From a virus, in IMG/VR virus record IMGVR_UViG_3300012006_000002, positions 38,767-102,766 of that record: DNA of 64,000 nucleotides; one strand, written 5' to 3'. Both the position numbers and the translations under genes were made by a program. The notes under the pieces are model-generated. The model was not told the DNA's origin. It did not search any database and saw only the letters and a list, made by a program, of their open reading frames with translations. How positions within the stretch are numbered: position 1 is the first letter of the stretch; each line of letters begins with the position of its first letter. Below are positions 12,260-55,835 of this stretch, one piece after another.

Positions 12260-12299
12260 TTATAGTATATAATTATACTTAATAAATACAGTGCCTTTT

Positions 12300-28819: not shown

Positions 28820-28995
28820 TATGTTTCTTTTTTATAAGGAACAATGCATTTCATTCCACGGATAGGGCAGTGAAAACATCTCCCCTTTTTATAGAATGCT
28901 CGAATTTCGCATCGTGTACAACGATGTTTGTGATTGACCTGTTCTCGAATATCTTTGTATCTGTCAAGTCCATACGTATAAAAAGTGAATGTCAT
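28819..28995 (-). CDS. Small zinc-finger protein (58 aa, not in ORF track)
   Basis: MTFTFYTYGLDRYKDIREQVNHKHRCTRC...RCFHC...; TAATG-coupled to dnaE upstream and to the next gene. Confidence 0.6.
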   Translation of the reverse strand: MTFTFYTYGLDRYKDIREQVNHKHRCTRCEIRAFYKKGRCFHCPIRGMKCIVPYKKET

Positions 28996-35219: not shown

Positions 35220-35226
35220 TAGTGTG

Positions 35227-36825
35227 CTACTTTTCCCCGGAAAATTCTTTGTATTTTTGGGCAATCGCTTTGGCGTCACGGACACTTGGCTTCCGGGATT
35301 TTTTGGGTTTGGCTACGGGAACAAGAGGGTGTTCGCCACGAAGTATGGAGCGAATTTCTGGATGAAGTCGATAGGCTCCATCCTCCATCAGGGGAGGCAT
35401 GGGTGGCTGATAATTTTTTCTTTGACTTCCTTTTCTTACTTCTTTTTCCCATTCCTGACGCTGCTTATTATATTCCCTAAGAAGTGGTGTTCGGTATTTT
35501 ACAGGAAGAGAGGCATATCTCTGCGAATCATGAAGTGCCTCATATACTGCTACAGTATATTTATCATCATCGGTAAGATATTTGGAGCCTTCCGGATCAT
35601 CCATTTGATCTTTTAATCCCTGAATGTGATCATAGGCAAGATCACCACTATGCAATGCATTTTTCATGGCCGGATGATCTCTGAATCGGGGAACCATCAG
35701 ATGCTTGTTGCCCTTGGCCTCCCATCTTTTGGAATCGGCAGAGATGGCTGGGGGTTCAGGTTTTGGATCGCGAGGTTTGTCAAGATCGGGATTGGCAAGT
35801 CTGCGGCGTGCCCTTGCTTGTGCGGCTTTGATTGGGTTTAATAATGCTCTTCTTTCTTCTACCGGAAGACCCTCCAATTTTCGTCGCGTGGATACAGGGG
35901 CATCTCCTTCGGCTGCTGGTCGTTTCGGTGCGCGAGGCCTGCGTGCAGGTCGTTCGACAACCGGATCTGGTGCTGGAGATTCCTCGGCTACTGCTGCTGC
36001 CGTTTTTTTTGGCCGGGTTCTTTTTGGCGCAGAAGCAGATTGCTGCATTGCCGCCACATTTGCTGCAATCGGATCTTCTCCACTTTTTATGGATGCCTTT
36101 TTTGCGTCAAAAAACGCTATTGCTGAACGAGTAGCCTGTCGTTTTGCTTCCTGATGTGCTTCATTCGTGGGATCATACCTTTCGGCTCCTTCAAAAACAG
36201 GAGTAAGACGCCGGGGCGTTGCCCATCCGTGAATTTGAGAGGTTTTCAAAACTGCTGCGATTTGATCGCGGATTTGATCTTCTTTTACTTTTTGCACTCG
36301 TAAATCTGGCGCTTCAAAAACAGGGCTTTTCCCACTCGGAGTAGTAACTTTTAATCCATGTTGAAATAAATCAACAGGTGCAGCGGTTGGATTTTTTGGA
36401 TCATGCAACAAATATCCCATATCTGTAGTAATGGCAATATGATGATTGGGATGATTAGGGTCGCTATACGGTTTTCCCGGAGGAATCACTCTTCCTTCAG
36501 GCACTACGTGCGGATGCGCGATAAGTTTTGAAATATCAACTTCTTTATTGCCGTCCAATATTTTGCCCTGCATGAGAAGATTGTGTGCCCTCATGTGTTC
36601 TGCAAGTTGTGCCTTTGCTCGTCCGCTAAGTTCCTTCTCTCTCGCAGTAACAATCTTCGATGCAGGTGCTATGCTTTTTTTGCCCATTCCTCGGGATATG
36701 ATGGGTTGCAAACCCTTTTGCAGTCTTGCTTCAGGGCTGCTGATATCAATGACAGGAGATGGATTTGTCCTTACAACATATCCATACATTCTTCTCATAA
36801 ACTTTGCAATATCATTATTATTCAT
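35227..36825 (-). CDS. Basic low-complexity protein (putative internal head protein)
   Basis: 532 aa, P/R/K/H-rich; MRRMYGY and LQKG motifs. Confidence 0.6.
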   Translation of the reverse strand: MNNNDIAKFMRRMYGYVVRTNPSPVIDISSPEARLQKGLQPIISRGMGKKSIAPASKIVTAREKELSGRAKAQLAEHMRAHNLLMQGKILDGNKEVDISKLIAHPHVVPEGRVIPPGKPYSDPNHPNHHIAITTDMGYLLHDPKNPTAAPVDLFQHGLKVTTPSGKSPVFEAPDLRVQKVKEDQIRDQIAAVLKTSQIHGWATPRRLTPVFEGAERYDPTNEAHQEAKRQATRSAIAFFDAKKASIKSGEDPIAANVAAMQQSASAPKRTRPKKTAAAVAEESPAPDPVVERPARRPRAPKRPAAEGDAPVSTRRKLEGLPVEERRALLNPIKAAQARARRRLANPDLDKPRDPKPEPPAISADSKRWEAKGNKHLMVPRFRDHPAMKNALHSGDLAYDHIQGLKDQMDDPEGSKYLTDDDKYTVAVYEALHDSQRYASLPVKYRTPLLREYNKQRQEWEKEVRKGSQRKNYQPPMPPLMEDGAYRLHPEIRSILRGEHPLVPVAKPKKSRKPSVRDAKAIAQKYKEFSGEK

Positions 36826-39110: not shown

Positions 39111-40349
39111 TTATCGTCCAGTTGCGTTTTTGCGCATTGAACGACCGTGAAGAAGAAGGCTTTTGGCAAACGAAACATCAAAATCTGGCTGGCGGATTGA
39201 CTTGTCCAGCGGCTTTGGCGGATTCTTCTTGCCTCGAAACTGAACGAAAGTAGCAAATGATCTCCGCGGACGATCATCGGGAAGATTTGGATCCTGCTGA
39301 CTCTGTTGTTCCATCGCACGGGCATGGCGGATATCATCTTCTCGGGCAGCAACGTGCCTGTCCCAGCTTCCACCCATGTGCTGAAAACTACCACTTGGGC
39401 CGACCTTGCTGGGATCAAACGTTTGGCCGTTTTCAGCCGCCACTCTTGCGCGATTTGCTGCCCGCTTTTCAGCCGACTTGCCAAGTTTTTGTGCGCTTCG
39501 GATGGAGCGGTCGGCGGCAATTGCCTTTGCGCCTTCCTGATGTCGGCCCGAGCGCATGCGTCCGTTGCCGCTTGCACGGTCGTCACGCTTGTCTGTTCCT
39601 CGTGCGCTTGGCGGCTGACGACGCATGGACGAATACGAAGGCGCATCATCTTCTTCGCCCTTATCCAGTTCCTCTGGTGAAGCAAACGAAGCAAACTTCT
39701 GCCGCTTGCTATTGTTCTCGTTCTTGGTATTCTGCGCCATGGCCTGCGCTGTCCCGGTTCCATGTACAGCCTGTCCATTTCGTGGCCCGCCGAAGTGCTG
39801 TGTCTGTCCCGGAGCGGCCATATTGGGCTTCTTTGCGTTTCCCACTTCCTGCCCGAATTTTGGATGAGAGGAATCAAGATACTGGGCCTTGATCAAGGAA
39901 TACGTTGAATAGTACTCACCAGCAACCGTATCAATTGCGGAACGATAATGAAATTCCGGATCATTTGTCGCAATTCCCTTGCGCAAATCACGCTGCTCAA
40001 TCTCTGTTGCAGACTTTCGGACGCGAGCAAGGTCTTCCTTGAAATGTTTGGCGTCAACACCTTCAATAGCAATTGATCGGGACGACGACGTTCCCTCTCC
40101 AAGCGGAGCAATGATCACGCCATATGCACCATCCTGATGCAACTCAAACTTGTTTCCAACATGCCATGCGCCAATCGTTGCATGCGTCTCAGGAGCGTCA
40201 ATCTTCCTGATGCTTGCGTTATAGTGATTCTGGCTGTATCCATACATGCTTCTCATCATGTCGGAAATAAGTTCATCATTTGGTGCAGACTTGTAGATCT
40301 TGACAGAATCATTCATATTTCCAAGGAATGACGTGGTGTTGCGGTTCAT
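39111..40349 (-). CDS. Putative internal head protein
   Basis: IYKS, MRSMYGY, VRKS, LRKG, LIKA, LDKG, LDKS, FAKS motifs. Confidence 0.6.
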   Translation of the reverse strand: MNRNTTSFLGNMNDSVKIYKSAPNDELISDMMRSMYGYSQNHYNASIRKIDAPETHATIGAWHVGNKFELHQDGAYGVIIAPLGEGTSSSRSIAIEGVDAKHFKEDLARVRKSATEIEQRDLRKGIATNDPEFHYRSAIDTVAGEYYSTYSLIKAQYLDSSHPKFGQEVGNAKKPNMAAPGQTQHFGGPRNGQAVHGTGTAQAMAQNTKNENNSKRQKFASFASPEELDKGEEDDAPSYSSMRRQPPSARGTDKRDDRASGNGRMRSGRHQEGAKAIAADRSIRSAQKLGKSAEKRAANRARVAAENGQTFDPSKVGPSGSFQHMGGSWDRHVAAREDDIRHARAMEQQSQQDPNLPDDRPRRSFATFVQFRGKKNPPKPLDKSIRQPDFDVSFAKSLLLHGRSMRKNATGR

Positions 40350-40365
40350 TATGTTTTCTTCCTTT

Positions 40366-41241
40366 TTACTTGCGTTTTGATTTGGCTTGCCGATAATCAT
40401 CTTCAGTCATTGCGTCTGGCCCCGGACCTGCGGAAAATCCAAAAGGACGATTGGTTTTCATGACTGGTTTTTTTTCAACAGGGGGACGAACTCGTCCCGG
40501 ACGATTTTCCGGACGCTCTTCCTGAATGTTTCTTGTATCACTCGGCAGCGGAATCTTGAACTTGTTTCCGGCCGCAGTGGCAAACTCAGCCTTGCGAAAT
40601 GACTTTCGTGTTCCGTCGGGATTATGCGTTGCCTTTGGATAGCGCTGTCCGTCAAGTCCGGTTGATCCCGGATTCGCTGCCGGATGATAATCGCTAAGAG
40701 TCATTCCGGGAGGAAGGACTTGCCCGCGAGGGGTACGTTTTTGGGGGACAGGTGCAACTCCTGTCATTTTGCCTTTTCGTCGCTCAATTGCACTCGGGCC
40801 TTTTCTTGGCTTGTAGTCTGCGTCCCCAAGCGGATAGTCGTTACCCATGTCATCGAGAAGACCCTTGCCAAAACTCTTCTTCGAGCCATGGCCATATTCT
40901 TCGTGATACCAACTTGGCATTCCAGATACGCCCTGACCTTTTGACTGCTTTTCACGCCATTGACGAATGGCGCGAAGCGTGTCAAGTTGGGTTGCATATT
41001 TCTCTTCCGCTTGCCGAAACTTCGTGTGTTGTCCGGCAGTTTCGGCTTGATGCGCTTGCTTCGCAAAATGATCTCGCGCGTCGAGCGCATCCGCTCGGGC
41101 ATGCGCAATTTGCTGATCGTTATATTGATGATAGTGATGACCAGCCTCGGGATGATAGGGAATACCCTTTTCTGCCTTGGATAAATCCTGAAGTTCAACA
41201 TACGTATTCATTGATTTATTGAAAAGATATCTTCTTGCCAT
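40366..41241 (-). CDS. Putative internal head protein
   Basis: SD GAGGAG; FNKS, LSKA, FGKG, FRKA motifs. Confidence 0.6.
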   Translation of the reverse strand: MARRYLFNKSMNTYVELQDLSKAEKGIPYHPEAGHHYHQYNDQQIAHARADALDARDHFAKQAHQAETAGQHTKFRQAEEKYATQLDTLRAIRQWREKQSKGQGVSGMPSWYHEEYGHGSKKSFGKGLLDDMGNDYPLGDADYKPRKGPSAIERRKGKMTGVAPVPQKRTPRGQVLPPGMTLSDYHPAANPGSTGLDGQRYPKATHNPDGTRKSFRKAEFATAAGNKFKIPLPSDTRNIQEERPENRPGRVRPPVEKKPVMKTNRPFGFSAGPGPDAMTEDDYRQAKSKRK

Positions 41242-41344
41242 GAACTTCTCCTCGTTCGGCACAGTATTGATTTATTATAAACAAATTCTATAAGAAATGG
41301 TTTGCTTAGACAAGATAACAGAAGAAGCAAAGGAGTGTCAACGC

Positions 41345-42148: not shown

Positions 42149-42313
42149 GATGCGCAATTCTTTCCTCGTGGGTAGCCGGATCCGTCGGCGTCTGTTATAC
42201 TAGGGGTGGCGTCATGGATCATCAGCAGCAAATCAGTTTTTTTTGAAAGCCTTTATTTTTGGCGACATTTGTATTATAGTATACACGTGATATAATATTT
42301 GTCGGAGAATAAA

Positions 42314-43462
42314 ATGTCAGTATCGTTAAGAGAACATTTGCTTAGAAAATCCAGACAAGAGTTGAGGGACGCGAATCATTCTTTGGTTTGGTATTCCGCA
42401 ATGCGAAAAGCTGATCTGAACGCACAGGCAAGCGCTGGCGGAAACCCGAGGGCACAAAGTGACTATTGGCAACGATATCACGGAGCGACGCTCGACCAAC
42501 ACTTGAATGATCCGTCCGGGCTTCCTCCATCTGCTCGCGATCATATCGAAAGTCAGCGCGAGTTCTGGCAGGGACGCGCTGGCGCTCCCAAGCCAAAGCG
42601 TACTGCTGCGCCAAAACCTTGGCCAAATGGCGAGAGACGCATTCCCGGAACCGGCGCTCCGGAAGAGCGCGACCCGCGGTCGCTCGGAACCATGAGGAGA
42701 TTACGACGCATTGCAGATAGATATGTTGCAAGCATAGGACTTCCGAAGATCAATCATGATCATCCTCCGATTGCAAAAGTTGATCCGGCATTTCATACTG
42801 AAATGGCTCATGCATTTGAACACATGAAAAATGAACCAAATCATCCTGCGGTAAGAGCATCGTATGATGCACTCGCCAAAGAAACAATAGCGCAATTTGA
42901 AGCGTTACGTCGGGCTGGAGTGAAATTCAAGCCGATTCCCGAGGGTCATGGCGATCCATATGAAGGAAATGCACAAAAGATGCTGCATGACTTGCATCAC
43001 AACAAGACGCTGCATTATTTCCAGACCGCACATGGATATGGCGATGAGGGAGCGAATGTTGATCCGGAGAATAAGCCCCTGACTGCAATCGCCGTAGGAT
43101 CTGATGGAAAGAACTTGCATATAGATGGACATAGTGGTCCGCTTATGGTAAATGATATATTCAGAGTTGTTCACGATGTGATGGGGCATGGGCTTGCCGG
43201 TGGTTCAGGATATAAAGGTTATTCGTTTACTCCTCATGGAGAGGAAAGCGCATGGAGACATCATCTCTTGATGTACACACCGGCAGCACGAATGGCGATG
43301 ACTCAGGAGTTAAGAGGACAAAATTCATGGGTTAACTATGGCCCTCATGGGAAAAAGAATCGAACATCCCCTCCGGATACCACATATGCTGATCAGAAAG
43401 TTGGCTTATGGCCGGAAAAATATCAGGAACTCTATCACAATGAGGAAAAACAAGATGGCTGA
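42314..43462 (+). CDS. Virion-type protein with HDxxGH...E putative metal-binding domain
   Basis: NDIFRVVHDVMGHG...GEESAW...ELRGQNSWVNYGP; N-terminal LRKS and MRKA motifs. Confidence 0.65.
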   Translation: MSVSLREHLLRKSRQELRDANHSLVWYSAMRKADLNAQASAGGNPRAQSDYWQRYHGATLDQHLNDPSGLPPSARDHIESQREFWQGRAGAPKPKRTAAPKPWPNGERRIPGTGAPEERDPRSLGTMRRLRRIADRYVASIGLPKINHDHPPIAKVDPAFHTEMAHAFEHMKNEPNHPAVRASYDALAKETIAQFEALRRAGVKFKPIPEGHGDPYEGNAQKMLHDLHHNKTLHYFQTAHGYGDEGANVDPENKPLTAIAVGSDGKNLHIDGHSGPLMVNDIFRVVHDVMGHGLAGGSGYKGYSFTPHGEESAWRHHLLMYTPAARMAMTQELRGQNSWVNYGPHGKKNRTSPPDTTYADQKVGLWPEKYQELYHNEEKQDG

Positions 43463-43613
43463 AAAAAAAGTTGAAAAAATGAAGAAATCCTCAAGCAGAA
43501 AATCTTCTCCGGTTTCTAAGAAAGTTGCGCAGCATAATTTGGCCGAACACTCTCGACGGTGCGCAATTCCAGAATGGGAATGGGCCATGTATGAAGACGA
43601 AGTTCAGAACTAG
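43455..43613 (+). CDS. Small basic protein
   Basis: SD GAGG; ATG 43455. Confidence 0.45.
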   Translation: MAEKKVEKMKKSSSRKSSPVSKKVAQHNLAEHSRRCAIPEWEWAMYEDEVQN

Positions 43614-43630
43614 TTGAAAGGAAAGAGAAA

Positions 43631-43813
43631 ATGGACGCAAAAAAGAAGCCACAACGCAGTATTGAAGAAATCCTTCAAGGTCGTAATCTTGTAGATCCGA
43701 AAGCATTAGCCGCCTACATGGAAGCCATGAAGAAAGAGAAGGCGATGGAGCGCGAAATGGCTCGCCGTAGGCGCAAAGCTCCTGCCCACGAAAAGCATCT
43801 TCACTACTCGTAG
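43631..43813 (+). CDS. Small basic protein
   Basis: 60 aa; SD AAGGA. Confidence 0.5.
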   Translation: MDAKKKPQRSIEEILQGRNLVDPKALAAYMEAMKKEKAMEREMARRRRKAPAHEKHLHYS

Positions 43814-43821
43814 AAAAAAGT

Positions 43822-46800
43822 ATGACTATCGTATTTCGCAAAACATCGTCAGGAGGAGGTCGTAGCCTTGGCGTGCCCATCGGGCCAGACGGTACTGGAA
43901 CGACAACAAGACGCGAGATAAAAGACAAGATTTTGCGATTTAATCCTTGGCTTGACACTGCCAAAAGAGAAGAAGTTGCTGATCGTCCCGAATCCCAATG
44001 GGGAACGAAGACAAGAAAATGGGTGAAAAAAGAGCTGAGGGACAATCGCTGGACGCGCGCTCCCTTGCGTGCAAAGACTCCGGGCACGGGAACGACAACA
44101 AGGCGAGAGAGAGCGGCCTTGGGTCCAATGGCAACAGCAACACCTCCTGCGCATATGAGAGGAATAGATGGCTTTACAGCGATCCCTCGGTACACAGGAG
44201 GGGGCACAAGGAGGCCTCGCGACAAGGATCCAGATAGCGATGGCTTCACGAGAAATGTAGGCGGGACCGGACAAACTGACGAAGTAGCACGCGCGGCCCA
44301 CGGATGGGGCCACCCCAGCGACTTGTCTGAATTGGCTGGACCAATAGTATCGCCCGTTCGCGGTCCGGAACCTCGTGCGGACGGCAGGCGTCACGCCGAG
44401 GAGTCCCTGCGATTGCCTCATGGCCATGAATTTCAGGATATTGATGAATATCCACCGAAAGGATTTCCTGCGCATTTAAAGGCGCTGACTCCTGATGGCG
44501 GCGGCAGGCGCGTCGGCGATACACCGAGCGGAATAACATTTTCATACGATTATCATTTATCCCATAGCGACGACGATCCCGATCATATGGATGCCGTCGA
44601 ATCAATGCCTCCGGGGATACGGGCTGATGCATCCGGAAAGAAATTCATTCAAAAGATATGTCTTCCAAATGAAAGCACCGCACGTGGAGAAAATGGGATA
44701 TCAAAAGTTGAAGAGTCTCGAAGAAGCACTGTTGGGGAGACTCTTGCCGACCGGATTTATCGTATCTTTGGCGTTCCTGTTCCGCGTTCGCAAATCTATA
44801 GTTTGAAAACAGGATTGCCCGTTCCTCATGATTACCAGTGGGCACCTAACGAATCGGCAACAAGAATATCTGAACATCTTGGAGATGCTTCAAACACGAT
44901 TGCCGGTGATGATGAGGCGCGTAACGGCGGCGTGATCCGGGGAAGAAACCTTGGCTTGGGTCCAATTGGCCGAAATCGTGGACGCTCCAGTTCTGTCGCC
45001 CGTATGTCCGCTCGCGCTTTGCGGGGAAATTCTTCAGGCACTGACGCTAGTACGGATCGCCCGCATGCCGGATTTAACAGAAACAAGAAGCGTTACGCGG
45101 TTGTTCAAGCACTACTTGGAGGCGGTGATGATCATCACCGCAACAGCATGACTGACGGAATAGCAAAGGATATTGTCTGGAAGGTTGACAATGGGTCTGC
45201 ATTGAAACATACTGCATTTGGTTCAGAAAAAGACGAAGAGGAATGGGGAGTTGTTCACCCAAAAACAATTCTTATTCCTGAAATTATAGATCTTCTGCTG
45301 AATAAAACCATTACCTACAGGGAAGCCTATCGGCAAATGGAACAAGTTGCAAAAATATGGAATCGTCAAAAAGATGCAATTGCGCATCTTTACAAATCTG
45401 ATGAAGATCCTGAGCAGTTTCATATTTTTGCCAGTCGGGCCAACAGCATTGCACGGGCAGTTGATCTTATAAAGAGTCCAAGCGAATTACGCAGGGTGTT
45501 TGAGGCACATAAACAAAGACCATATGATGATCCTGCCCGCGTAGGACCAAAAGGCGAAGTGATTCGGAACAGAAGATTTCCGCGAAAGAAGCGATCAGCA
45601 GGATCTGAATCAGGATTCATGGCGCGGTCAATGTTAATGCTAGCCGTTACACCTTTGAAAATCCTGAGGAAAGCGCGTCCGGCTGTGCAGGCAAATCCTC
45701 CGCCGGACACAAAAGATCTTCCCGAAACAGAACTCAATACTCGGGGAGAAAAAATGTATGGTCCATTGCCACCGTGGCCAAAGAGTGATCCGCATACCAT
45801 AGGTGCCACGACACAAGCTGCTGGCATGTATCCATTTGAGGCAAGGCGACGAGCGGCGCTGGAGCAGGGTAATCCCTCTGCCAGAAGAGATTTCAGGCGG
45901 TTGCCGAGAGCCGTGCGAAGAAGAATGCTTGAGATGCACAACCGTGCGGGGGGGGAAGTTCCTGCCGATCTTCGCGACTTGTATCTCGGAGATGAGTATC
46001 GCCCCGGCCGCACAAAAGTCCAATCAAATCCCGGAACATCGGCCAAGGACAGGACTGTACTTCGAGGATCTCCTCGATGGAATACCGCCCGGATTCTTCC
46101 TGTTACATCAACGGTATTCGGTCCCGGACAGAGAATGAGGGGCAATCGTTTCCATGCCGAAGAAGCATTGAAACTTCCGGATGGTCACGAGCATCAGGAC
46201 ATCGGGGAAACCCCTCCTCACGGATTTCCTGATCACCTCAGGGAGCTTCATACACGAGGTGGAGGAAGAAGACTGCCCATTAGTTTAAGTGGTATCAATT
46301 TTGATAGGAGCAGGCATGAAAGCGCATCAAGATATGATGCAAATGCCAAGAAATACATGGCTACCTTCAAGAGATGGAGGCCGGGTATTCGGGAGACTGC
46401 TGACGGACGAAAGTTCATTCAGAAAATCTGTCTTCCTGCGTCGTCGTCGCATTCTGCGCACATGGCAGGAATGAGTGCTGCCGACAAATCTCGGGAAAAC
46501 ACTGTTCACGAAGCAATTGGAGATCGTTTGTTGCGAGTATTTGGAATTCCGGTTCCGAGAACACAGTTATACAGTCTTGCAACCGGAAAACCCGTTCCTC
46601 ATGGTTATCAATGGAAACCCGACGAGATGGCCACCAGAATATCTGAACATCTTGGACCAGAATCAAAGACAATGGCCGAACATGGCGTTTCTTGGGGTCC
46701 GGACGCTATAGCAGCCACGAATTGGCGAGGAAACAAGAAAAGATACTCCATGGTTGCGGCGTTGTTTGATTCCGATGGTGATGATCATGAGGGAAACAGC

Positions 46801-47256
46801 ATGACCGATGGTGTGCATTTTGATATTCCTTGGAAAGTTGATAATGGAGCAGCGCTGAGTCATGATGCATGGGGAAGAAGGAAGAGACATTGGGTCCGAC
46901 ATGAACCAAAGAGCATATTGCTTCCTCAAATTTATTATGCACTAACATCAGGAAGTATTGACTTTCATCACGCATTTGATCAAATGAAACAAATTGCTGA
47001 AATCTGGGCCAAACAGAAAAATACAATTAAAAAAATATTTGCCGATGAAAAAGATCCAGAGCAGTATCAGATTTTCAAGAGTCGCGCTCAAAGCGTTGCC
47101 CGTGCAGTAAATGTTCTTGGAAACGCACGAAATTTGAGAAGATTGATTGAGCGGCATCAAAGAATAATTCCTCAAGCCAACGCAGGAAAAACAAGCGCAA
47201 AGAGAAAAGTGCGTCGCGCAGGACTTGATTCCAATGCCGATATTGTCAATCCATAA
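43822..47256 (+). CDS. Protein with two HipA/PI3-PI4K-like kinase domains
   Basis: Each domain has FIQK, E..[AG]DR...FG[VI]PVP, DxHxxN (DDHHRN, DDHEGN) and WKVDNG. Confidence 0.75.
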   Translation: MTIVFRKTSSGGGRSLGVPIGPDGTGTTTRREIKDKILRFNPWLDTAKREEVADRPESQWGTKTRKWVKKELRDNRWTRAPLRAKTPGTGTTTRRERAALGPMATATPPAHMRGIDGFTAIPRYTGGGTRRPRDKDPDSDGFTRNVGGTGQTDEVARAAHGWGHPSDLSELAGPIVSPVRGPEPRADGRRHAEESLRLPHGHEFQDIDEYPPKGFPAHLKALTPDGGGRRVGDTPSGITFSYDYHLSHSDDDPDHMDAVESMPPGIRADASGKKFIQKICLPNESTARGENGISKVEESRRSTVGETLADRIYRIFGVPVPRSQIYSLKTGLPVPHDYQWAPNESATRISEHLGDASNTIAGDDEARNGGVIRGRNLGLGPIGRNRGRSSSVARMSARALRGNSSGTDASTDRPHAGFNRNKKRYAVVQALLGGGDDHHRNSMTDGIAKDIVWKVDNGSALKHTAFGSEKDEEEWGVVHPKTILIPEIIDLLLNKTITYREAYRQMEQVAKIWNRQKDAIAHLYKSDEDPEQFHIFASRANSIARAVDLIKSPSELRRVFEAHKQRPYDDPARVGPKGEVIRNRRFPRKKRSAGSESGFMARSMLMLAVTPLKILRKARPAVQANPPPDTKDLPETELNTRGEKMYGPLPPWPKSDPHTIGATTQAAGMYPFEARRRAALEQGNPSARRDFRRLPRAVRRRMLEMHNRAGGEVPADLRDLYLGDEYRPGRTKVQSNPGTSAKDRTVLRGSPRWNTARILPVTSTVFGPGQRMRGNRFHAEEALKLPDGHEHQDIGETPPHGFPDHLRELHTRGGGRRLPISLSGINFDRSRHESASRYDANAKKYMATFKRWRPGIRETADGRKFIQKICLPASSSHSAHMAGMSAADKSRENTVHEAIGDRLLRVFGIPVPRTQLYSLATGKPVPHGYQWKPDEMATRISEHLGPESKTMAEHGVSWGPDAIAATNWRGNKKRYSMVAALFDSDGDDHEGNSMTDGVHFDIPWKVDNGAALSHDAWGRRKRHWVRHEPKSILLPQIYYALTSGSIDFHHAFDQMKQIAEIWAKQKNTIKKIFADEKDPEQYQIFKSRAQSVARAVNVLGNARNLRRLIERHQRIIPQANAGKTSAKRKVRRAGLDSNADIVNP

Positions 47257-47272
47257 AATAAGGAATACATAA

Positions 47273-48781
47273 ATGCCAAAAAAAACGACTTCCATGTCGC
47301 CGGACAAAGCAGCTATACATCAAGCGGTGAGAGCGCAGTTGGATCAAGCACGAAAAGTGGCCCTTCCACGGGAAGAGACGCTTACTCCAAGAAGATTGAG
47401 GGCAGCGTTGCGTGGCCCTAATGCGTCGACAGACAAAAGTACCCCGTCTTCAATGTCTGTGCAAACACCTTCGTGGTGGCAGTCGAGTCCAAGCCAGACA
47501 GCATCCACCACGCCGAGTCCAACGAGACCATCGCGGGGGGCACGTGTAGCGGGAAGGCGGGGAGGATCTGATCCCGACTCGCAATTTGCGCAGGGCAACC
47601 GATGGGCGGTTCCGGGAAAGCCACCGAGAGCTGGTGCGCTAACTTCTCCTGTTCGCGGGCCAGAACCGCGCGCGGACGGCAAACGTCACGCCGAGGAATC
47701 CCTGCGATTGCCTGAAGGTCATGATTTTCAGGATATTGATGAATACCCCCCCAAAGGGTTTCCGTCTCATTTGAAGGAACTGACTCCTGATGGCGGCGGC
47801 GAGCGGCTTCCCATAGAGCCGGGGGGAGTAACGTTCAGCGAGCGTTTTCACGAAACCAACAGCGGAGACGATCCTGAACACATGGCTAATTTTCATGCCA
47901 TGAAGCCGGGTATCAGAAAAACTGCTGCGGGAAAATTGTTTGTGCAAAAGATAGGCCTTCCATCTTCGTCAAGAAGGGAAAGCCCAGTTGATGCGTCCAG
48001 AAAATCCACGAATGGTGAAGTCATTGCCGACCGTATTTTCCGGATTCTGGGGGTTCCAGCTCCACGGTCGCAAGTGTATAGCATGAAGACCGGATTACCT
48101 GTTCCTCATGATTACCAGTGGGCACCCGGAGAAGCATCAACGCGAATATCAGAGCATGTTGGCAAAGATTCCGGAACAATAGGTGATTTAGCATATAGAC
48201 ATGGTGATCATATTAGAGAAGATTGGAAAAGCAACGAAAAAAGATACGAGGTTGCAAAAGCATTGCTTGCCCATGGGGATAATCATGAATATAATACCAT
48301 GCTTGACGGGAAGCATATGGATGTTCCTTGGAAAGTGGATAATGGCTCTGCATTGAAATATGATGCGTTTGGAGGAACCAAGCACGAGAGTGTATGGGGC
48401 AAAGTGCCAGCCAGTGATGTCATATTTCCTCAACTCCTTGAATCAGTTATAAATAAAAAAATAACGCCAAGAGAGGCATACCGGCAAATGGAAGGTATCG
48501 CCAAGATATGGCGTCGTCACCGGGGAGCCATTGAGAAGATCTACAAAAACGAAGAAGATCCCGAGCAGTTCAAGATCTTTGCCAGTCGCGCCGATAGCAT
48601 TGCAAGAGCTGTTGACATGTTCAAGGGTCCGAGAGAGTTTGCCCGAGCGCTGAACCACAATTTAGAACAAGGATTCGGCCCGTTACAGGACCATGCACCA
48701 AAGCGCAAGCCCAAGGGATCAAAGTTCACCGTGGGATCGGAGTTCATGGCCCGTTCATTCAGGTGGGGCATGAACGTCTAG
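47273..48781 (+). CDS. HipA/PI3-PI4K-like kinase paralog
   Basis: FVQK, EVIADRIFRILGVPAP, DNHEYN, WKVDNG. Confidence 0.75.
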   Translation: MPKKTTSMSPDKAAIHQAVRAQLDQARKVALPREETLTPRRLRAALRGPNASTDKSTPSSMSVQTPSWWQSSPSQTASTTPSPTRPSRGARVAGRRGGSDPDSQFAQGNRWAVPGKPPRAGALTSPVRGPEPRADGKRHAEESLRLPEGHDFQDIDEYPPKGFPSHLKELTPDGGGERLPIEPGGVTFSERFHETNSGDDPEHMANFHAMKPGIRKTAAGKLFVQKIGLPSSSRRESPVDASRKSTNGEVIADRIFRILGVPAPRSQVYSMKTGLPVPHDYQWAPGEASTRISEHVGKDSGTIGDLAYRHGDHIREDWKSNEKRYEVAKALLAHGDNHEYNTMLDGKHMDVPWKVDNGSALKYDAFGGTKHESVWGKVPASDVIFPQLLESVINKKITPREAYRQMEGIAKIWRRHRGAIEKIYKNEEDPEQFKIFASRADSIARAVDMFKGPREFARALNHNLEQGFGPLQDHAPKRKPKGSKFTVGSEFMARSFRWGMNV

Positions 48782-48809
48782 CATTAATACCACGACAGGA
48801 GATATATCA

Positions 48810-51098
48810 ATGCCAAAGAACACATCATCCGATCCGGATTATAATGGAGGTGGTCCGGGCTTGGGTGGGATGACTCCTCCAAGTCACTGGTCCGGGCATT
48901 CTCCGCCTTCAGGGGGACAGACATCGCCGGAACAAGCGGCGGCTGGTCATATTGCCGCAGCGTCGCATCCATCTATCAGTGGCGGAGTGCCGCCCCTGAA
49001 CTCAAGGACTGAGCGATTAGGACGTGTCAACGATGCTCTTGTGGCACGGAACGCGGCGTGGGCCAAACGTGGTGCGGGAGACTCACCTGAGACTCGCTCA
49101 AAAACGCGAGATGATCTTGCGTCACTACCTGACACCTTCTACGCTCCGGAATCGCAGTGGGGGAATGCCACAAGAAAGGAGCTGAAAGAAATAGTCAGGG
49201 TTAACCGTGCGGAGAATCTTGGCAGGCGTTGGGGAACCTTGACGGGGAGCTCGGCACGACGAAGGGGATTCAGGCGGGTGGATGATCTTGAGGCCCGTTA
49301 CGGAAGAGCAGGCCAGAGAGATTGGGGCGCGAGGACAAGAGCCATGGCCCAAGAAATGCTCGATCATGAAAGAGGTATGCCGTCAGCGAGACAGGCCGCG
49401 GTGCGAGCAAAGATAAAGCGGGAAAACAAAATCGTAGCCGCCTTGCAGCAGAGAGATTATGCAGTGGGCAAACGTCGTGCGGGAGATTCGCCTACCCCCG
49501 GCACCAAGACGCGAGATGATCTTGCAGCGCTTGTACGTCAGGGCGACTTGCGACGCGACGCGCCCCCTGACGCGATAAGGGCAGCAAAACGTAATGCGAG
49601 AGTTCTTCGCGCCAAGAAAATTGGCGCTGCTGCCAGAGCGCGTCGCCGTGCTGCGGGAAAACCAGCGGATGCGATGGATCTCAGTCGAAACAGGCGGGTA
49701 CGGCATGTAGATGCTCTTGAGGCGGAGCATGCAAGAGGGACTACTTGGGGTTCGGAAACAAGGCGCATGGCGAGGCAAAAAGTCAGTGACGAGAGCCGTG
49801 CGGATAGATTGTGGCAGATAGCCGCGGCACGCAGGCAAGGGATAACGACCCCCGCGCAGAGGGCACCTGTAGCGAGAGGGCGTCGAGGCGGTTCTGATCC
49901 CGACTCGCAATTTGGCAATGATCGGCGCAATGGCGGTCGTCCGGGAAGGGCATCGGCCCTAACCTCACCTGTTCGCGGGCCAGAACCTCGCGCGGACGGC
50001 AGGCGTCACACCGAGGAGTCCCTGCGGCTACCTGCTGGTCATGAATTTCAGGATATTGACGAAATCCCGCCCAAGGGATTTCCGGCGCATTTGGACGAGG
50101 TAACTCCCAAGGGCGGCGGCGAGCGTCTGCCCATAGACCTCAGTGGAGTCACATTCAAGCAGTACCATCACGAGGGCCGCAGCGGAGACGATCCTGAACA
50201 CATGGCTAATTTTCATGCCATGACTCCGGGGGTCAGGAAGACCGCTGCAGGAAAGTTATTTGTACAAAAGATAGCTCTTCCCGGCAAACGTGGATCTGAA
50301 GCGGTGGATAGTTCCAGAAAGTCTACAAATCAGGAAATGATTGCTGACCGGATTTTCCGGATTCTGGGAGTTCCAGCTCCACGGTCGCAAGTGTATAGCC
50401 TGAAGACAGGATTGCCCGTTCCGCATGATTATAAGTGGTCACCGGGAGAAGCATCCACCCGCCTAGCCGAACATCTTGGCAAGGATTCCACAACGGTGGC
50501 TAGCGCGGATCGGAGACATCAGAGCGCATGGGAAGGGCATGAACGACGATACGCTGTGGCAAAAGCATTGCTCGCTCACGGTGACGATCATCTGAACAAT
50601 ACCATGTTTGATGGAAAGCACATGGACATTCCGTGGAAAGTGGATAATGGCTATGCATTGAAATATAATGCATTCGGAGGCGAAAAAGGTTCAGATATAT
50701 GGGGGGAAGTTTCTCCTCGATCTGTGTTGTTTCCCCAGCTCTATCAAATGATTGGAGAAGGAATCGTAACTCCAAGAGAGGCATACCGGCAAATGGAAGG
50801 TATCGCCAAGATATGGCGTCGTCATGGCGGAGCCATTAGGGAACTGTATAAAAATGACGACGATCCAAAACAAGCCAAGATCTTCGCCAGTCGTGCGGAA
50901 AGCATTGTAAGAGCTGTTGACATGTTCAAGGGTCCGAAAGAGTTTGCTCGGGCGATGAGAACACATTTCAGGGCGTATGATCGGGGTGACCGCGCAACTA
51001 CGAGCGATTTGATTCCAAAGCGCAAGCCCAAGGGATCAAAGTTCAGCACGGGATCGGAGTTCATGGCCCGTTCCTTCAGTTGGGGCATGAACGTCTAG
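48810..51098 (+). CDS. HipA/PI3-PI4K-like kinase paralog with Arg-rich N-terminal repeats
   Basis: FVQK, EMIADRIFRILGVPAP, DDHLNN, WKVDNG; WGxxTR repeats. Confidence 0.75.
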   Translation: MPKNTSSDPDYNGGGPGLGGMTPPSHWSGHSPPSGGQTSPEQAAAGHIAAASHPSISGGVPPLNSRTERLGRVNDALVARNAAWAKRGAGDSPETRSKTRDDLASLPDTFYAPESQWGNATRKELKEIVRVNRAENLGRRWGTLTGSSARRRGFRRVDDLEARYGRAGQRDWGARTRAMAQEMLDHERGMPSARQAAVRAKIKRENKIVAALQQRDYAVGKRRAGDSPTPGTKTRDDLAALVRQGDLRRDAPPDAIRAAKRNARVLRAKKIGAAARARRRAAGKPADAMDLSRNRRVRHVDALEAEHARGTTWGSETRRMARQKVSDESRADRLWQIAAARRQGITTPAQRAPVARGRRGGSDPDSQFGNDRRNGGRPGRASALTSPVRGPEPRADGRRHTEESLRLPAGHEFQDIDEIPPKGFPAHLDEVTPKGGGERLPIDLSGVTFKQYHHEGRSGDDPEHMANFHAMTPGVRKTAAGKLFVQKIALPGKRGSEAVDSSRKSTNQEMIADRIFRILGVPAPRSQVYSLKTGLPVPHDYKWSPGEASTRLAEHLGKDSTTVASADRRHQSAWEGHERRYAVAKALLAHGDDHLNNTMFDGKHMDIPWKVDNGYALKYNAFGGEKGSDIWGEVSPRSVLFPQLYQMIGEGIVTPREAYRQMEGIAKIWRRHGGAIRELYKNDDDPKQAKIFASRAESIVRAVDMFKGPKEFARAMRTHFRAYDRGDRATTSDLIPKRKPKGSKFSTGSEFMARSFSWGMNV

Positions 51099-51390: not shown

Positions 51391-52014
51391 ATGACAAGCA
51401 GCCCCGCAATGAAAAGAATCCATGCGAATGTGCTTGACACTTTCGATGAATCCCGAGAGAACACTCAAAAAATCATCCGTCGGGAAGAACGACGCCAAAA
51501 GAAGCGCATCCTTGACGATCATACCGGACGGGGAATCCCGAAGCATGTCCAGAAAATTACGCATGGAATTGAGCAGCACGCACGCAATCTGCAAACGAAG
51601 GTTGACCGGGACCAATCCGCGCGTCGCCGGGAGGCATCACGGGAGTTACGGAAGCATACCGAGATGATTGCGAAAGCGGCTGCAAGGGCAAACCCAACGA
51701 CTCCAAGGTCAACCCCGCGCCGTTCAAATCGACGTAGTTTCTTCGGCACTGCTGCAAAGATAGCCATAGGAGGTGCAGGGGCGGCGGCTTCGGGGTTAGC
51801 GCTGGTAAATAACGGGCAAACGTTTCTCCGGAATAATCCAGAATTTCCTGATGCCGTCAAAACTACTGTCAATAACAACAGGGGCGTTATTGACAAGGTG
51901 ACTGACTGGGCAAAGAATGTCATGAAACCCAAAGAAAAATCGTTCTCCAGAACAGTTGCAAAAAGCGCACTATACAGGCCTAAAAAAGTCATGCTGATGC
52001 TCGCCTCAACATAA
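51391..52014 (+). CDS. Basic protein with a Gly/Ala hydrophobic segment (putative virion protein)
   Basis: 207 aa; C-terminal VAKS...VMLMLAST. Confidence 0.6.
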   Translation: MTSSPAMKRIHANVLDTFDESRENTQKIIRREERRQKKRILDDHTGRGIPKHVQKITHGIEQHARNLQTKVDRDQSARRREASRELRKHTEMIAKAAARANPTTPRSTPRRSNRRSFFGTAAKIAIGGAGAAASGLALVNNGQTFLRNNPEFPDAVKTTVNNNRGVIDKVTDWAKNVMKPKEKSFSRTVAKSALYRPKKVMLMLAST

Positions 52015-52025
52015 GCAGTTAATTC

Positions 52026-55000
52026 ATGAACAATATCGAACATACCCGACTCGTTGCAATGGAGATGATGAATCCGCTGTTCAAGATTCTTGGTGAAGCA
52101 TCGCGCAAGAACGGAATGGCGTACTATGCGCGGCGGAACAAGAATCTGACGAAGGTGTTTGCGTCAATCAGGAAATTTCCTACTGGAAAGTTTGTGCCTG
52201 CCAGTGGAGTTTATGAGGGGGAACATGAAGGGGTCTTTGGCAACGACCGGAGTTTGTACTTACATGTCCGTCCAAGTCCTCAGCGTATAACCCATGTTGA
52301 TGGCGTGAACACGAGACTTCATCTAGACGATGAGGCAGACCGTCCAGTTCATCCATACATCGAATATATGCAGGTCAAGCCGGGAGCAGCCAATCCCGGC
52401 CCAGAGCATGCCCAGCAAGTATATGAAGCGCTGCATCGTCAGGGATATACCGGCGATACCATGAAGTTCCATGCGCCTACGGATGAAGATGGTCGGCGCG
52501 ACAAGAACGGGCTTAACAGGCGTCAGAGGTTATACCGTCCCTTTGTCCAAGGATGGAAGGACTTCATCCGGTCGAAGGGCAACAAGCAATACCCACCAGA
52601 GAAGTATGAGAACCTTATTAATATACATTTTGAGCGATCATTCGGGGGTCCGCTGTTCAAGATCCTTGGGGCACAAGCGCGCGATCAGGGAATGGACCGT
52701 CATCCACATGTGGCCGATGCGTTTGACTCTTCGGAAAAATATCCTACTGGCCACTTTGCCCCTTTTGGCGGTCATAGTGAGTGGGATGATAGTGCCAACC
52801 ATTGGGATGGACATGAGGGAATCTTCGGCAAGGACCGGGATCTTTATCTTCATGTCAAGCCTGCTCCGCAGCATGCCACTCATGTTGATGGAGAGAACAC
52901 AATGCTTGATCTGGATGACGAGGAAAACCGCCCAATTCATCCGTACATCCAGTACCTGCAGGTCAAGCCGGGAGCAGCCAATCCCGGCCCCGAGCATGCC
53001 CAGCAAGTATATGAGGCGCTCCATCGGCAGGGATATACCGGCGATACCATGGATTTCTTTGCACCTTCGGATTCGGATGGTCGGCGCGACAAGAACGGGC
53101 TTAACAGGCGTCAGAGGTTATACCGTCCCTTTGTCCAAGGCTGGAAGGACTTCATCCGCGCAAAGGGGTACAAGCAATACCCGATGGCAAAATCGTTGAC
53201 CAGACGGTTTTGGGAAAGGAAACCACAGGTTGGTGCTGCGCCACCTCCGGAGCCTGCGCAGGACAGGCCGAGTCTTGCCAGCCGCATGCTTGGAAAGGTC
53301 AAGGTCACGAGACGTTCTGGCTTGGAGGGAGCATCGGCAATTGCGTCAAATCCCAAGGCGGCGGGAAAGATAGCGCTTGACATGGCTGCTCCCGGAGCAT
53401 CCGCCATCGCCAGTGGTGTGCCCGCTCTTCCCAAGGTCGCGGGAGGGACCGATCTTTCCTCGCTGGTTCATCGCGTCGGTTCGAATCCGTCTGCGGAAAC
53501 ATGGGTCTCGTCAGGATTAGGAATAGTGCGTGGCGCTACAACCGGGTTGCTGGGAGTGCTAGTTCCCGGCGGAAGCAAGTCAATAGCAAGTTCTTCGGTA
53601 ACGGCAGGTTCGGGGGTCATGGACGGAATCAAGAAACTGGGAAGCGATCCTGATTTTGCTAGCGGGGCATCCGAATGGTGGCCAAGGAAGAAGGGTGCCC
53701 CGCATGCTGTTCTTCAGCATGCAATACGATTGGCTGCGGCTGGAAAGCAGATAACCAGAAGAGGGTTGTCTGATGCATTGGTTAGAGAAGAAATGACGGC
53801 ACCAATTGTCAGATCTCCTTCCGGAACATTTCATGACATACCTGACCTCATTGGTCCAAAAGTTTCCAATAGTAGCGGAATGTCCGTGTATGTTCTTCCC
53901 GCAGAACATCAAACCAGACATCTTGGCCCAATAGCCCACTATGGAAGCGACGAGAAATTCGGATCTGTCATACAGTTGAGTGGTCATGATGCTGAAGCAG
54001 AAGATTATAAAAAAATGTCAGAAATCATGCGTCCGATACTGGCAGCAGACAAGGCAAACCCCTATGTGGGAGGCATCACCGATCTCACGGGGAATATGGA
54101 TCACAAGAGAGGAAGGCAGATTGCGGGTACAGCGCAGCCTTGGGAAGAGGCAGAGCCGATTTCCTTTGATGGTCCGGAACACGCTTTTGAAGAATTCGAC
54201 AGAAAGCATAATGAAAACGGGGTTGGAAAGTCAATTGTCAAAAAAGGGGAAGCAGAGAAAGAAAGGCGTGCAAAGAAGAGAGAAAAAGAAGAGCAAGAAA
54301 AGCGCGCAAAAAAGCCGAGATATCGTGATGACGATATGGCATCGCGGATGGCCGCTCAAGAGCGCATGCGTACCGCACAGGACAGGATCAGGCCAGCCAA
54401 TCGCTCACGCCTTGAGCGATCATTGTCGTCCATGGAAAAAAGCGCCGCATGGCAACGCAAGGAAGGCAAGAACCCCAAGGGCGGACTCAACGCCAAGGGG
54501 CGGGCATCAGCCAAGCGCGAGGGCCACAATCTCAAGGCTCCGGTGAAATCGGGCGACAATCCTCGCCGCGCATCGTTTCTTGCCAGAATGGGCGGAAGTC
54601 CCGGCCCCGAATATGATGAGCATGGGAAGCCAACCAGATTGTTGCTGGCCCTTCGTGTGTGGGGAGCATCGAGCAAGGCGGATGCGAAGCGAAAGGCAGC
54701 GGCCATGAGCGAGCGGCTCAAGAAAAAGAAACTTGCAAAAGGCCGGGGCGAAGATGCGCGGCAAGACCATTTATTTTCCGGCGCTAAAGGATTTAGTGAA
54801 CGCGATTATCCAACGGGGCAAATGACGAAAACTTCGCAGCTAGGTGTATATGGTATGTCGCATATAGGTGTATTTGGAGAAAAGAGACATATTCTCGTAG
54901 AATCCCACAAAGCATACCCCGATAGCACTCACATTGAATGGGTACATATAGAACCCGGTACAAAAGTTGAACCACATCATATTACGGAGATTTTTGGAGC

Positions 55001-55835
55001 ATTGCATGACGCGGGGTACACGAAGCCGATGAGTTGGAGTGCGCTAGAAGACAATGATGAAAGATTTTCTGATCGGCAATCTTCCCGCAGGGATCGTCTT
55101 TTCCGTCCGCTGGCAGCTCAATGGGACAAATTTGTTGCGGCGAAGCAAGCCAAGATGAGCAAGGCAGAGCTAGACGCAAAAAAGCCAAACCATAATACCT
55201 CCGGCCCCCGTTCCCCCCGCTGGCAGCCCGCAGTTGGCCCAACGCTCACGCCACGCCAGATTGCCATTCAACAGCGAAGCGCCCAAAAATTGGCGGAACT
55301 TGCCGCCCTTCCGGCCGGATCTCCCCAAGCGAGAGAAGCGACTGTGCCCAAGCGATCACGGACACCGTTGATGCCAAGACGCTCGCAAGGGCTTCTCGCA
55401 TCATCCGCTGATGGCCATGTCTCTGTCGCGGAAGCCGCAAGAATACTCGGCATACCGCACTCGGCAGTGACGAAACATATCGAACGAGGTACGTTCCCCG
55501 CAAGATATGAAGCATCCAAGCGCACCATAGATACGAGTCATCCCCACTTCATCGCAGTCCGCGATGGCCTCCGGCAAGGCAAGACCATGAAGACCATTCT
55601 TTATGATCTTGAGGAGAAGCCAGTAACCGAGGAGGAAAAGAAGGACTCCTATGGCGAAATGTACGGCTATCCGCAAGGGAAACGCCGCTACCGCTCCTCA
55701 CGCACACGGACCGGCACGTCCAGACAAGCACGCCTCGGCCAGTACCAGAGAATCTCCCCGGTGACTGGCAAACCCAGCAAGAGTACGAGTCTGGGTCGCC
55801 CTCCCCTCGCTGATCCCTACGCGCTGTTTGATTGA
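52026..55835 (+). CDS. Multi-module polyprotein-like virion protein (3 related domains, DUF6321-like segment, HTH)
   Basis: Two near-identical ~180-aa domains plus a divergent third copy; AWQRKEGKNPKGGLNAKGRAS segment; VSVAEAARILGI excisionase-type HTH. Confidence 0.7.
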   Translation: MNNIEHTRLVAMEMMNPLFKILGEASRKNGMAYYARRNKNLTKVFASIRKFPTGKFVPASGVYEGEHEGVFGNDRSLYLHVRPSPQRITHVDGVNTRLHLDDEADRPVHPYIEYMQVKPGAANPGPEHAQQVYEALHRQGYTGDTMKFHAPTDEDGRRDKNGLNRRQRLYRPFVQGWKDFIRSKGNKQYPPEKYENLINIHFERSFGGPLFKILGAQARDQGMDRHPHVADAFDSSEKYPTGHFAPFGGHSEWDDSANHWDGHEGIFGKDRDLYLHVKPAPQHATHVDGENTMLDLDDEENRPIHPYIQYLQVKPGAANPGPEHAQQVYEALHRQGYTGDTMDFFAPSDSDGRRDKNGLNRRQRLYRPFVQGWKDFIRAKGYKQYPMAKSLTRRFWERKPQVGAAPPPEPAQDRPSLASRMLGKVKVTRRSGLEGASAIASNPKAAGKIALDMAAPGASAIASGVPALPKVAGGTDLSSLVHRVGSNPSAETWVSSGLGIVRGATTGLLGVLVPGGSKSIASSSVTAGSGVMDGIKKLGSDPDFASGASEWWPRKKGAPHAVLQHAIRLAAAGKQITRRGLSDALVREEMTAPIVRSPSGTFHDIPDLIGPKVSNSSGMSVYVLPAEHQTRHLGPIAHYGSDEKFGSVIQLSGHDAEAEDYKKMSEIMRPILAADKANPYVGGITDLTGNMDHKRGRQIAGTAQPWEEAEPISFDGPEHAFEEFDRKHNENGVGKSIVKKGEAEKERRAKKREKEEQEKRAKKPRYRDDDMASRMAAQERMRTAQDRIRPANRSRLERSLSSMEKSAAWQRKEGKNPKGGLNAKGRASAKREGHNLKAPVKSGDNPRRASFLARMGGSPGPEYDEHGKPTRLLLALRVWGASSKADAKRKAAAMSERLKKKKLAKGRGEDARQDHLFSGAKGFSERDYPTGQMTKTSQLGVYGMSHIGVFGEKRHILVESHKAYPDSTHIEWVHIEPGTKVEPHHITEIFGALHDAGYTKPMSWSALEDNDERFSDRQSSRRDRLFRPLAAQWDKFVAAKQAKMSKAELDAKKPNHNTSGPRSPRWQPAVGPTLTPRQIAIQQRSAQKLAELAALPAGSPQAREATVPKRSRTPLMPRRSQGLLASSADGHVSVAEAARILGIPHSAVTKHIERGTFPARYEASKRTIDTSHPHFIAVRDGLRQGKTMKTILYDLEEKPVTEEEKKDSYGEMYGYPQGKRRYRSSRTRTGTSRQARLGQYQRISPVTGKPSKSTSLGRPPLADPYALFD

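Follow-up and report, generated by a model that had tools for sequence, protein, structure and literature searches.

What does a tailed phage do with four kinase-like domains encoded one after the other? The question is raised by three consecutive genes at positions 43822-51098 of a 64,000-nucleotide (nt) stretch of viral DNA (the window, to which all coordinates refer), which corresponds to bases 38767-102766 of the 102,766-bp linear IMG/VR virus record IMGVR_UViG_3300012006_000002. The record was rated 59 % complete by CheckV and belongs to a tailed phage with large terminase, portal and tail genes. No similar phage was found in INPHARED, using tblastn against 50,697 phage records and blastn of the terminase-portal region. 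Here, we describe the four domains, which are most likely catalytically competent atypical protein kinases, as predicted from a structure model and the conservation of the active site, and discuss what they may contribute to infection.

Three adjacent genes encode four paralogous kinase-like domains

The three genes are open reading frames (ORFs) on the plus strand: gene 1 (43822-47256, 1144 amino acids (aa)), gene 2 (47273-48781, 502 aa) and gene 3 (48810-51098, 762 aa), with a spacing of 16 nt between the first two and 28 nt between the last two. Together they contain four paralogous domains of about 340-380 aa, which span 44344-45657 (K1), 46105-47253 (K2), 47639-48778 (K3) and 49959-51095 (K4). 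With the junction and tail motifs set apart from the kinase cores, the genes are built as follows:

43822-44343, plus strand: basic leader of gene 1 (aa 1-174); isoelectric point (pI) 10.8, 12.6 % Arg; WGxxTR motif in common with the gene 3 leader
44344-45615, plus strand: K1 (gene 1 aa 175-598); FIQK at aa 275, DDHHRN at 436, DNG at 456
45616-45657, plus strand: FMARS-MLML junction motif between K1 and the linker to K2
45658-46104, plus strand: basic Pro/Arg-rich linker, the leader of K2; pI 11.0, 13.9 % Arg, 12 % Pro
46105-47256, plus strand: K2 (gene 1 aa 762-1144); FIQK at aa 865, DDHEGN at 987, DNG at 1007
47273-47638, plus strand: basic leader of gene 2 (aa 1-122); pI 11.9
47639-48742, plus strand: K3 (gene 2 aa 123-490); copy used for the structure model
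48743-48781, plus strand: C-terminal tail FMARSFRWGMNV of gene 2
48810-49958, plus strand: long basic, repeat-bearing leader of gene 3 (aa 1-383); pI 11.5, 15.9 % Arg, three WGxxTR motifs
49959-51059, plus strand: K4 (gene 3 aa 384-750); FVQK at aa 484, DDHLNN at 592, DNG at 612
51060-51098, plus strand: C-terminal tail FMARSFSWGMNV of gene 3

A first-pass annotation, made from the letters of the DNA, had proposed four paralogous domains, each keeping the catalytic Lys, Glu, DxHxxN and DNG of HipA/CtkA/PI3-4K-type kinases. Both claims hold: a profile of the four copies recovered exactly the K1-K4 sites in the record (E 1e-203 to 1e-217), near the coordinates proposed, and F[IV]QK, E..[AG]DR, D[DN]H..N and DNG are present in all four domains. 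In the alignment of the four window copies (A1), pairwise identity ranged from 45 to 71 %, with K3 and K4 as the closest pair (71 %) and 47-57 % for the comparisons with K1. K2 is the most diverged copy and lacks the FMARS tail, and K1 carries a 40-aa Arg/Ser/Gly-rich insert in the hinge region, ahead of the catalytic loop. Divergence had been described as concentrated around the catalytic loop and after DNG; the variable stretches in A1 do include the x positions of this loop and the segment after DNG, but also the beta3-alphaC loop, the hinge region and the C-terminal linker.

For every computable pair of K1-K4, the dN/dS ratio (non-synonymous to synonymous substitution rates, Nei-Gojobori) was between 0.21 and 0.28, indicating purifying selection and, therefore, that all four copies are maintained. 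K3 and K4 differ by a dS of 0.79 and a dN of 0.21, and dS was saturated for K2-K3 and K2-K4. A reading of the copies as pseudogenes was rejected, given the intact frames and a ratio of about 0.25. The near-identical 3' ends of genes 2 and 3 had been taken as a sign of recent duplication or conversion. These ends are indeed about 93 % identical over about 95 nt, compared with 75 % across the whole domain. Two internal 60-nt segments of K3 and K4 are as conserved as the 3' end (0.92-0.93), so that recent gene conversion is possible but not required, and we rejected it as a proven event.

The domains share an atypical kinase fold with an invariant active site

For the structural analysis, the K3 domain was modelled with AlphaFold2 on a 19-sequence alignment of the copies with homologs (A2), and residue numbers below follow this domain. 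The model was confident (predicted local distance difference test (pLDDT) 88.1, predicted template modelling score (pTM) 0.87), except for the last 24 residues (357-380), which comprise the tail motif and are disordered (pLDDT <50). Using VIA-align, the best match was the Helicobacter pylori kinase CtkA (3akk_A, Z 14.6, 233 of 296 residues, root-mean-square deviation 4.0), followed by actin-fragmin kinase (Z 13.0), a bacterial Ser/Thr kinase (7vkc, Z 11.9), HipA, PI4K-II-alpha and CotH (Z about 11.8), MavQ (Z 10.9) and Fam20C (Z 10.8-10.9). Kinases filled all of the top 50 rows. Foldseek returned 249 PDB matches at E<=1e-3, the first of which were PI3K, PI4K, Vps34 and PRPK. The structural comparison that the first-pass annotation had proposed, against HipA, CtkA and PI4K, accordingly returned a kinase fold.

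The residues expected for catalysis are strictly conserved. K104, E127, D214, N219, D234 and G236 are invariant in 18 of the 18 sequences of A2 that cover the region, down to 23 % identity, and G245, W253 and R317 are further invariants specific to this family. K104 lies in a strand (100-104), E127 in a helix (116-136), the loop D214-N219 follows a helix (204-209) and D234 follows a short strand, which is the canonical kinase order. The features of the protein kinase-like (PKL) fold superfamily were thus found together: a bilobal kinase fold, the beta3 Lys, the alphaC Glu, D-x4-N and a Mg-binding Asp. Searching the PDB with the A2 profile ranked PI3K-alpha first, with GD-H--N over GDRHNSN and DNG over DFG, a match that is not significant on its own (E 0.06-0.5).

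At the sequence level, known kinase families were not recognized. Nothing meaningful was found for the three proteins in Pfam, PHROGs or NCBIfam, and phmmer gave no match to the PDB. HipA_C (PF07804) and PI3_PI4_kinase (PF00454) did not match the three proteins at E<=1; for two distant homologs HipA_C reached E 0.08-0.09, and for the distant homologs P0014 and P0055 PI3_PI4_kinase stayed below the threshold (P-numbers denote metagenomic protein clusters or relatives, L-numbers contigs carrying relatives). Kinase-PolyVal (PF18762) was matched neither in the whole record at E<=1 nor in an hmmscan of the three proteins. Fold and active site therefore support placing the domains in the HipA/CtkA/PI3-4K group of atypical kinases, but the named Pfam families do not.

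Taken together, the domains are most likely active enzymes of the structural class of CtkA, actin-fragmin kinase, HipA and PI4K-II, predicted to carry out Mg-ATP-dependent phosphorylation. The likeliest acceptor would be Ser/Thr of proteins, because the nearest folds include the protein kinases CtkA, actin-fragmin kinase, HipA, CotH and Fam20C.

Basic leaders and a recurrent motif at gene ends and module junctions

Every kinase domain is preceded by a very basic segment (pI 10.8-11.9, 11.5-16 % Arg). The leaders had been described as Arg-rich and different for each domain; the first part is correct, whereas the leaders have WGxxTR and GRRGGSDPDSQFG-type motifs in common. The gene 3 leader contains the repeats AGDSPE..KTRDDLA and VNALEAEH...WG..TR, the number of which varies between orthologs, together with a repeat at the DNA level (49061-49120 and 49466-49525). 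Its length varies as well, from about 320 aa in P0004 to 383 aa in this phage and about 540 aa in P0060. AlphaFold2 yielded isolated helices for this leader in an unreliable model (pLDDT 58.6, pTM 0.23).

Genes 2 and 3 both end with FMARSF(R/S)WGMNV, and the tail of gene 2 is nearly identical in gene 3, P0004, P0060 and L006. Within gene 1, FMARS followed by MLML marks the junction of K1 and K2, and this junction is retained in the two-kinase ortholog P0007. MLML also terminates the ORF at 51391-52014, and two ORFs on the minus strand (35227-36825 and 40366-41262) have FM(A/R)R(R) among their first 12 residues. Altogether, the FM.R../MLML pattern matched seven times against 0.9 expected, a statistic that is post hoc and inflated by paralogy; every match falls between 35227 and 52014 and is placed either at a terminus or at the K1/K2 junction.

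Motifs of the FM(A/R)R, MMRS or FAKS type, about 10-50 residues from a terminus, were also noticed in unannotated basic ORFs and in DHFR, all of which may belong with the kinases to one set of tagged proteins. The ORFs with tail-like motifs are:

34569-35285, minus strand
35227-36825, minus strand
39111-40400, minus strand
40366-41262, minus strand

Upstream of the transcription unit with the kinase genes, we found a promoter-like motif:

42255-42290, plus strand: promoter-like motif with the core TATTATAGTATA

The exact core TTATAGTATA occurs three times in the window, at 12260, 42274 and 51346 on the plus strand, before a tRNA-Leu gene, the ORF at 42299 and the ORF at 51391. At the latter two sites it is extended to TATTATAGTATA and accompanied by an upstream AAAGCC box. 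This motif is a candidate for a phage promoter class distinct from the element of the early-gene cassettes, AATGGTACAG, which is absent between 564 and 56308 of the window. Control of the kinase genes by the early-cassette element was rejected for this reason.

Relatives are few and join the kinase to other modules

An exhaustive HMMER search with the four-copy profile, covering 1.84 billion cluster representatives, retrieved only 14 proteins at E<=1e-3. Five of them are close relatives (E<=1e-30) and the remainder are 23-30 % identical and 260-707 aa long; the close family is very small, consisting of a handful of metagenomic clusters. Three scans of IMG/VR, with profile A1, P0009 and P0014, revealed no relatives, and a metagenome scan added two short contigs only. 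Relatives are carried on contigs of up to 171-194 kb, the size of those with the P0009/P0027/P0037 cluster, whereas the contig of P0004 measures 35 kb.

In several relatives, the kinase is the first module of a longer protein. P0008 (925 aa) continues after the kinase with LFRS-MLML, more modules and a second MLML, and its residues 696-848 resemble the 207-aa protein encoded at 51391-52014 (30 % identity over 166 aa, E 0.01 in a single comparison), with MLML at the end of both. P0009 (925 aa) and P0006 also start with the kinase, which is followed by IMRRS-FGGEMM and, at the end, a DUF6321 module; that of P0009 shares 77 % identity with the DUF6321 module in the 1269-aa protein encoded downstream of the kinase genes (E 8e-41). 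Compared with these proteins, in which the kinase is joined to other modules, gene 1 consists of two kinase domains only. The fusions in the relatives indicate that the gene ends in this phage coincide with module junctions elsewhere. Together with the 207-aa and 1269-aa genes, the kinase genes thus appear to form one module pool in two expression units, each with the same promoter-like motif.

Tandem kinases recur in a relative as well, since contig L006 carries a K4-type kinase gene and, about 450 bp further on, a P0005/P0008-type kinase gene. Two distant paralogs, P0011 and P0013, were found on shared contigs.

More distant homologs lie in very large proteins. With A2 as query, one domain in each of several proteins of 1737-4358 aa aligned from the beta3 region through DNG (hhalign probability 93-97 %). 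One of these giant proteins also contains ART-PolyVal and ADPrib_exo_Tox, another a UvrD helicase and a NUDIX domain, which makes them polyvalent as defined by Iyer et al. (2017; PMC5512222). The top ranks of a Foldseek search of BFVD were large phage proteins annotated as portal, ADP-ribosyltransferase (Mycobacterium phage Onyinye), head morphogenesis or PI3/4-kinase-domain proteins. Structural neighbours in the ESM Atlas include clusters with fusions of Phage_Mu_F and ADP-ribosyltransferase (ART), which serve as a lead only, given that the Atlas model of P0002 has a pLDDT of 0.51. The most distant subgroup (NWD...DN...RIDNG) was also detected with an A4 profile on genome contigs, in metagenome-assembled genomes of Verrucomicrobia, Parachlamydiales, Planctomycetia and Actinomycetes. 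In Legionella longbeachae NCTC11477, a 2021-aa protein (L011:5365-11427) carries a distant kinase homolog near its N-terminus, followed by NUDIX and many ankyrin repeats, and looks like an effector.

Two side observations concern these relatives. The adjacency of kinase and NUDIX was also seen in P0057 and in neighbours from BFVD and the ESM Atlas. P0055 (1737 aa) has a sub-threshold PI3_PI4_kinase match at 1161-1206 and an A2-profile match at 1356-1479, and may hold two kinase-like domains.

Genomic setting of the kinase genes

The genes around the kinases and the identified phage genes of the window are:

18570-20708: Prim-Pol/helicase
24775-26442: large terminase
26492-28393: portal
28995-32432, minus strand: PolIII-alpha
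42299-43462, plus strand: first gene of the kinase unit (387 aa); match to phrog_3170 (unknown function), E 1e-13
51391-52014, plus strand: 207-aa gene ending with VMLMLAST; same promoter-like motif upstream
52026-55835, plus strand: 1269-aa multi-module protein with a DUF6321 module (PF19846, E 6e-18)

Tail sheath, virion structural proteins and a lytic tail protein are encoded in the 38 kb upstream of the window. For the 387-aa ORF, there was no match in Pfam or NCBIfam. Two small lysine-rich plus-strand ORFs occupy 43481-43814, in the 360-nt gap between this ORF and kinase gene 1. At some distance, a 311-aa plus-strand ORF (13624-14559) matches a NinI-like serine/threonine phosphatase (phrog_246, E 1.2e-9) and metallophosphoesterase; this phosphatase might reverse or limit the action of the four kinases.

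A probable role as effectors and its alternatives

Combining these data, we consider it probable that the four domains are previously unannotated atypical protein kinases which act as effector modules on host proteins, belong to a pool partly split at the FMARS/MLML motif and may be delivered with the DNA or soon after it. In such a mechanism, one operon would yield kinases fused to very basic, largely unstructured leaders. K104 and E127 would hold ATP, D214 of the D-x-H-x-x-N loop would act as the catalytic base, and N219 together with D234 of DNG, the equivalent of DFG, would bind Mg. In related phages, the kinase, DUF6321 and other putative effector modules are joined into polyprotein-like ("polyvalent") proteins, and the present phage carries such modules in part as individual genes, divided exactly at the FMARS/MLML junction. 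The junction or tail motif may then function as a signal for processing or for packaging and addressing, and the basic leaders may bind nucleic acid or tether the kinases to DNA. After entry of the kinases with the DNA or very soon thereafter, each diverged paralog could phosphorylate host proteins of its own, helping to take over the cell or to disarm its defences, as described for the T7 kinase.

A more specific version would be a capsid-delivered "kinase battery". Here, the four kinases would be cut from leader-bearing precursors at an FMAR|S-type motif that also tags DHFR, the 207-aa protein and the 1269-aa modules, and, as the DNA enters, each would neutralise its own target in host defence or takeover. 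We regard this version as doubtful. If it were true, the phage would possess a pre-made anti-defence arsenal of several enzymes with its own addressing and processing code.

Several results weigh against the effector reading as a whole. We infer packaging in the virion and injection, which the first-pass annotation had already proposed by calling the products putative virion proteins; this part was not borne out by the head genes, because Peptidase_S78, Phage_Mu_F and the HK97-type capsid gave no match in the record, with working controls. About 41 % of the genome is not part of the record, and these negatives hold for the record only. The searches for the T4 prohead protease (Peptidase_S77), which had no match in the record and none in 14 control genomes, carry no weight, and the same search outcome for the T4 capsid protein Gp23, in the record and in the control genomes, is uninformative. 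The kinase genes are located outside any identified head module and are flanked by genes of nucleotide metabolism (thyA/DHFR) and the array of early-gene cassettes; neither MuF nor ART was found at the locus. The window proteins are matched by no sequence model of a kinase family, the motif statistics carry the reservations given above, and protein is only the presumed substrate, because some of the closest folds (PI4K-II, MavQ) are lipid kinases.

The best of the alternatives is a non-virion role, and part of this evidence speaks for it. The proteins would then be active kinases made after infection from their own promoter class, cytoplasmic like T7 gp0.7 and acting on host or phage proteins, and FMARS/MLML would be a linker relic of gene fission or fusion. 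The lack of a head protease, MuF or capsid gene in the record is in agreement with this idea, and so are the position of the genes beside thyA/DHFR and the early-cassette array instead of portal and terminase, a promoter-like motif of their own which is common to a tRNA gene, and the example of the T7 kinase, the best-studied phage kinase, which is expressed rather than packaged. In contrast, the distant relatives are domains of polyvalent, MuF-fused or portal-fused proteins. Conservation of the tail motif extends to the DNA, unrelated proteins encoded nearby carry the motif at their termini, and the leaders, very basic and disordered, are similar to internal head proteins. We see a purely post-infection role as possible.

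It is unlikely that the domains are kinases of lipids or small molecules, similar to PI4K-II or MavQ, with envelope lipids or a nucleotide signal as examples of substrates. PI4K-II (Z 11.8), MavQ (Z 10.9) and PI3K/Vps34 are indeed among the best structure or profile matches, and NUDIX domains repeatedly adjoin the distant homologs. However, the top matches (CtkA, actin-fragmin kinase, HipA/HipT, CotH and Fam20C) are protein kinases without exception, nothing like a membrane-binding element was noticed, and phosphoinositides are as a rule absent from bacteria. Least of all do we expect pseudokinases, structural internal head proteins that merely keep the kinase fold, or HipA-like growth-arrest toxins for superinfection exclusion: many copies with basic leaders would suit bulk internal proteins and HipA is a close fold, but all five catalytic residues are invariant across the four paralogs and the distant homologs and evolve under purifying selection, the HipA_C profile is not matched, and no HipB-like partner gene was noticed beside the kinases, where no dedicated search was made.

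The locus is of interest in several respects. It adds an unannotated kinase family with a fully conserved catalytic centre and a confident structural model. As a natural series of four paralogs (45-71 % identity) that share an operon and evolve under purifying selection, the copies lend themselves to comparing substrate specificities. The short motif, found at gene boundaries here and at module boundaries in relatives, may be a processing or packaging signal. If it is true that the kinases arrive with the DNA, this phage would be an example of multiplying one type of effector instead of combining different ones.

Comparison with known systems

The first-pass annotation had taken a phage system of this form as not yet described, which applies to a part of the system. 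Effector kinases of phages are already known, and so are kinase modules within polyvalent or MuF proteins. What appears to be new is a kinase family with very few members and no library model, its four-fold tandem expansion without MuF or ART, and the junction or tail motif. To our knowledge, the kinase modules of polyvalent and MuF head proteins are common and have not been studied at the bench.

That polyvalent proteins of phages and conjugative elements can contain kinase domains has been known since Iyer et al. (2017; PMC5512222). Those proteins, and MuF- or portal-fused proteins with kinase and ART modules, are likewise phage-borne kinase modules within multi-module effectors. The polyvalent kinase family of 2017 was described as lacking the C-terminal helical lobe (PMC5512222), whereas the kinase of this phage keeps it, does not match PF18762 and has no MuF or ART in its locus. 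Four tandem paralogs, basic leaders and the FMARS/MLML junction motif further distinguish the present system from the polyvalent kinases.

The T7 kinase gp0.7 (T7K) is a proven broad anti-defence kinase involved in host takeover; it disarms DNA-associated defences, with a substrate bias that originates from an appended DNA-binding domain (PMC13645617). Neither system has Phe in its DFG-equivalent (DPV in T7K, DNG here), and the basic leaders might play the role of the appended nucleic-acid-binding part of T7K. In contrast to the multi-copy module described here, T7K appears to belong to a different kinase family, and its early gene is present as one copy and includes a C-terminal shut-off domain; T7K-like proteins were not among the BFVD matches.

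Among cellular kinases, the likeness to HipA and PI4K-II lies in the fold (Z 11-12), and that to PI3K in the G-D-x-H-x-x-N motif followed about 20 residues later by D-x-G, which aligns with GDRHxxN...DFG. Differing from HipA, neither the HipA N-terminal domain nor a HipB-like partner was seen here, without a specific test for either, and the PI3K helical or C2 accessory domains of PI3K/PI4K are absent from the phage proteins. The closest known systems are the cell-translocating kinase A (CtkA) of H. pylori (3akj/3akk/3akl) and the actin-fragmin kinase of Physarum (1cja), both Ser/Thr protein kinases with the same compact atypical architecture and a helical C-lobe. The identity to these two enzymes is only 12-15 %, with no match at the sequence level. 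The phage domain adds a conserved N-terminal extension of about 90 residues and the invariant G245, W253 and R317 to this architecture and, unlike CtkA and actin-fragmin kinase, it is phage-borne and present in four tandem copies behind basic leaders.

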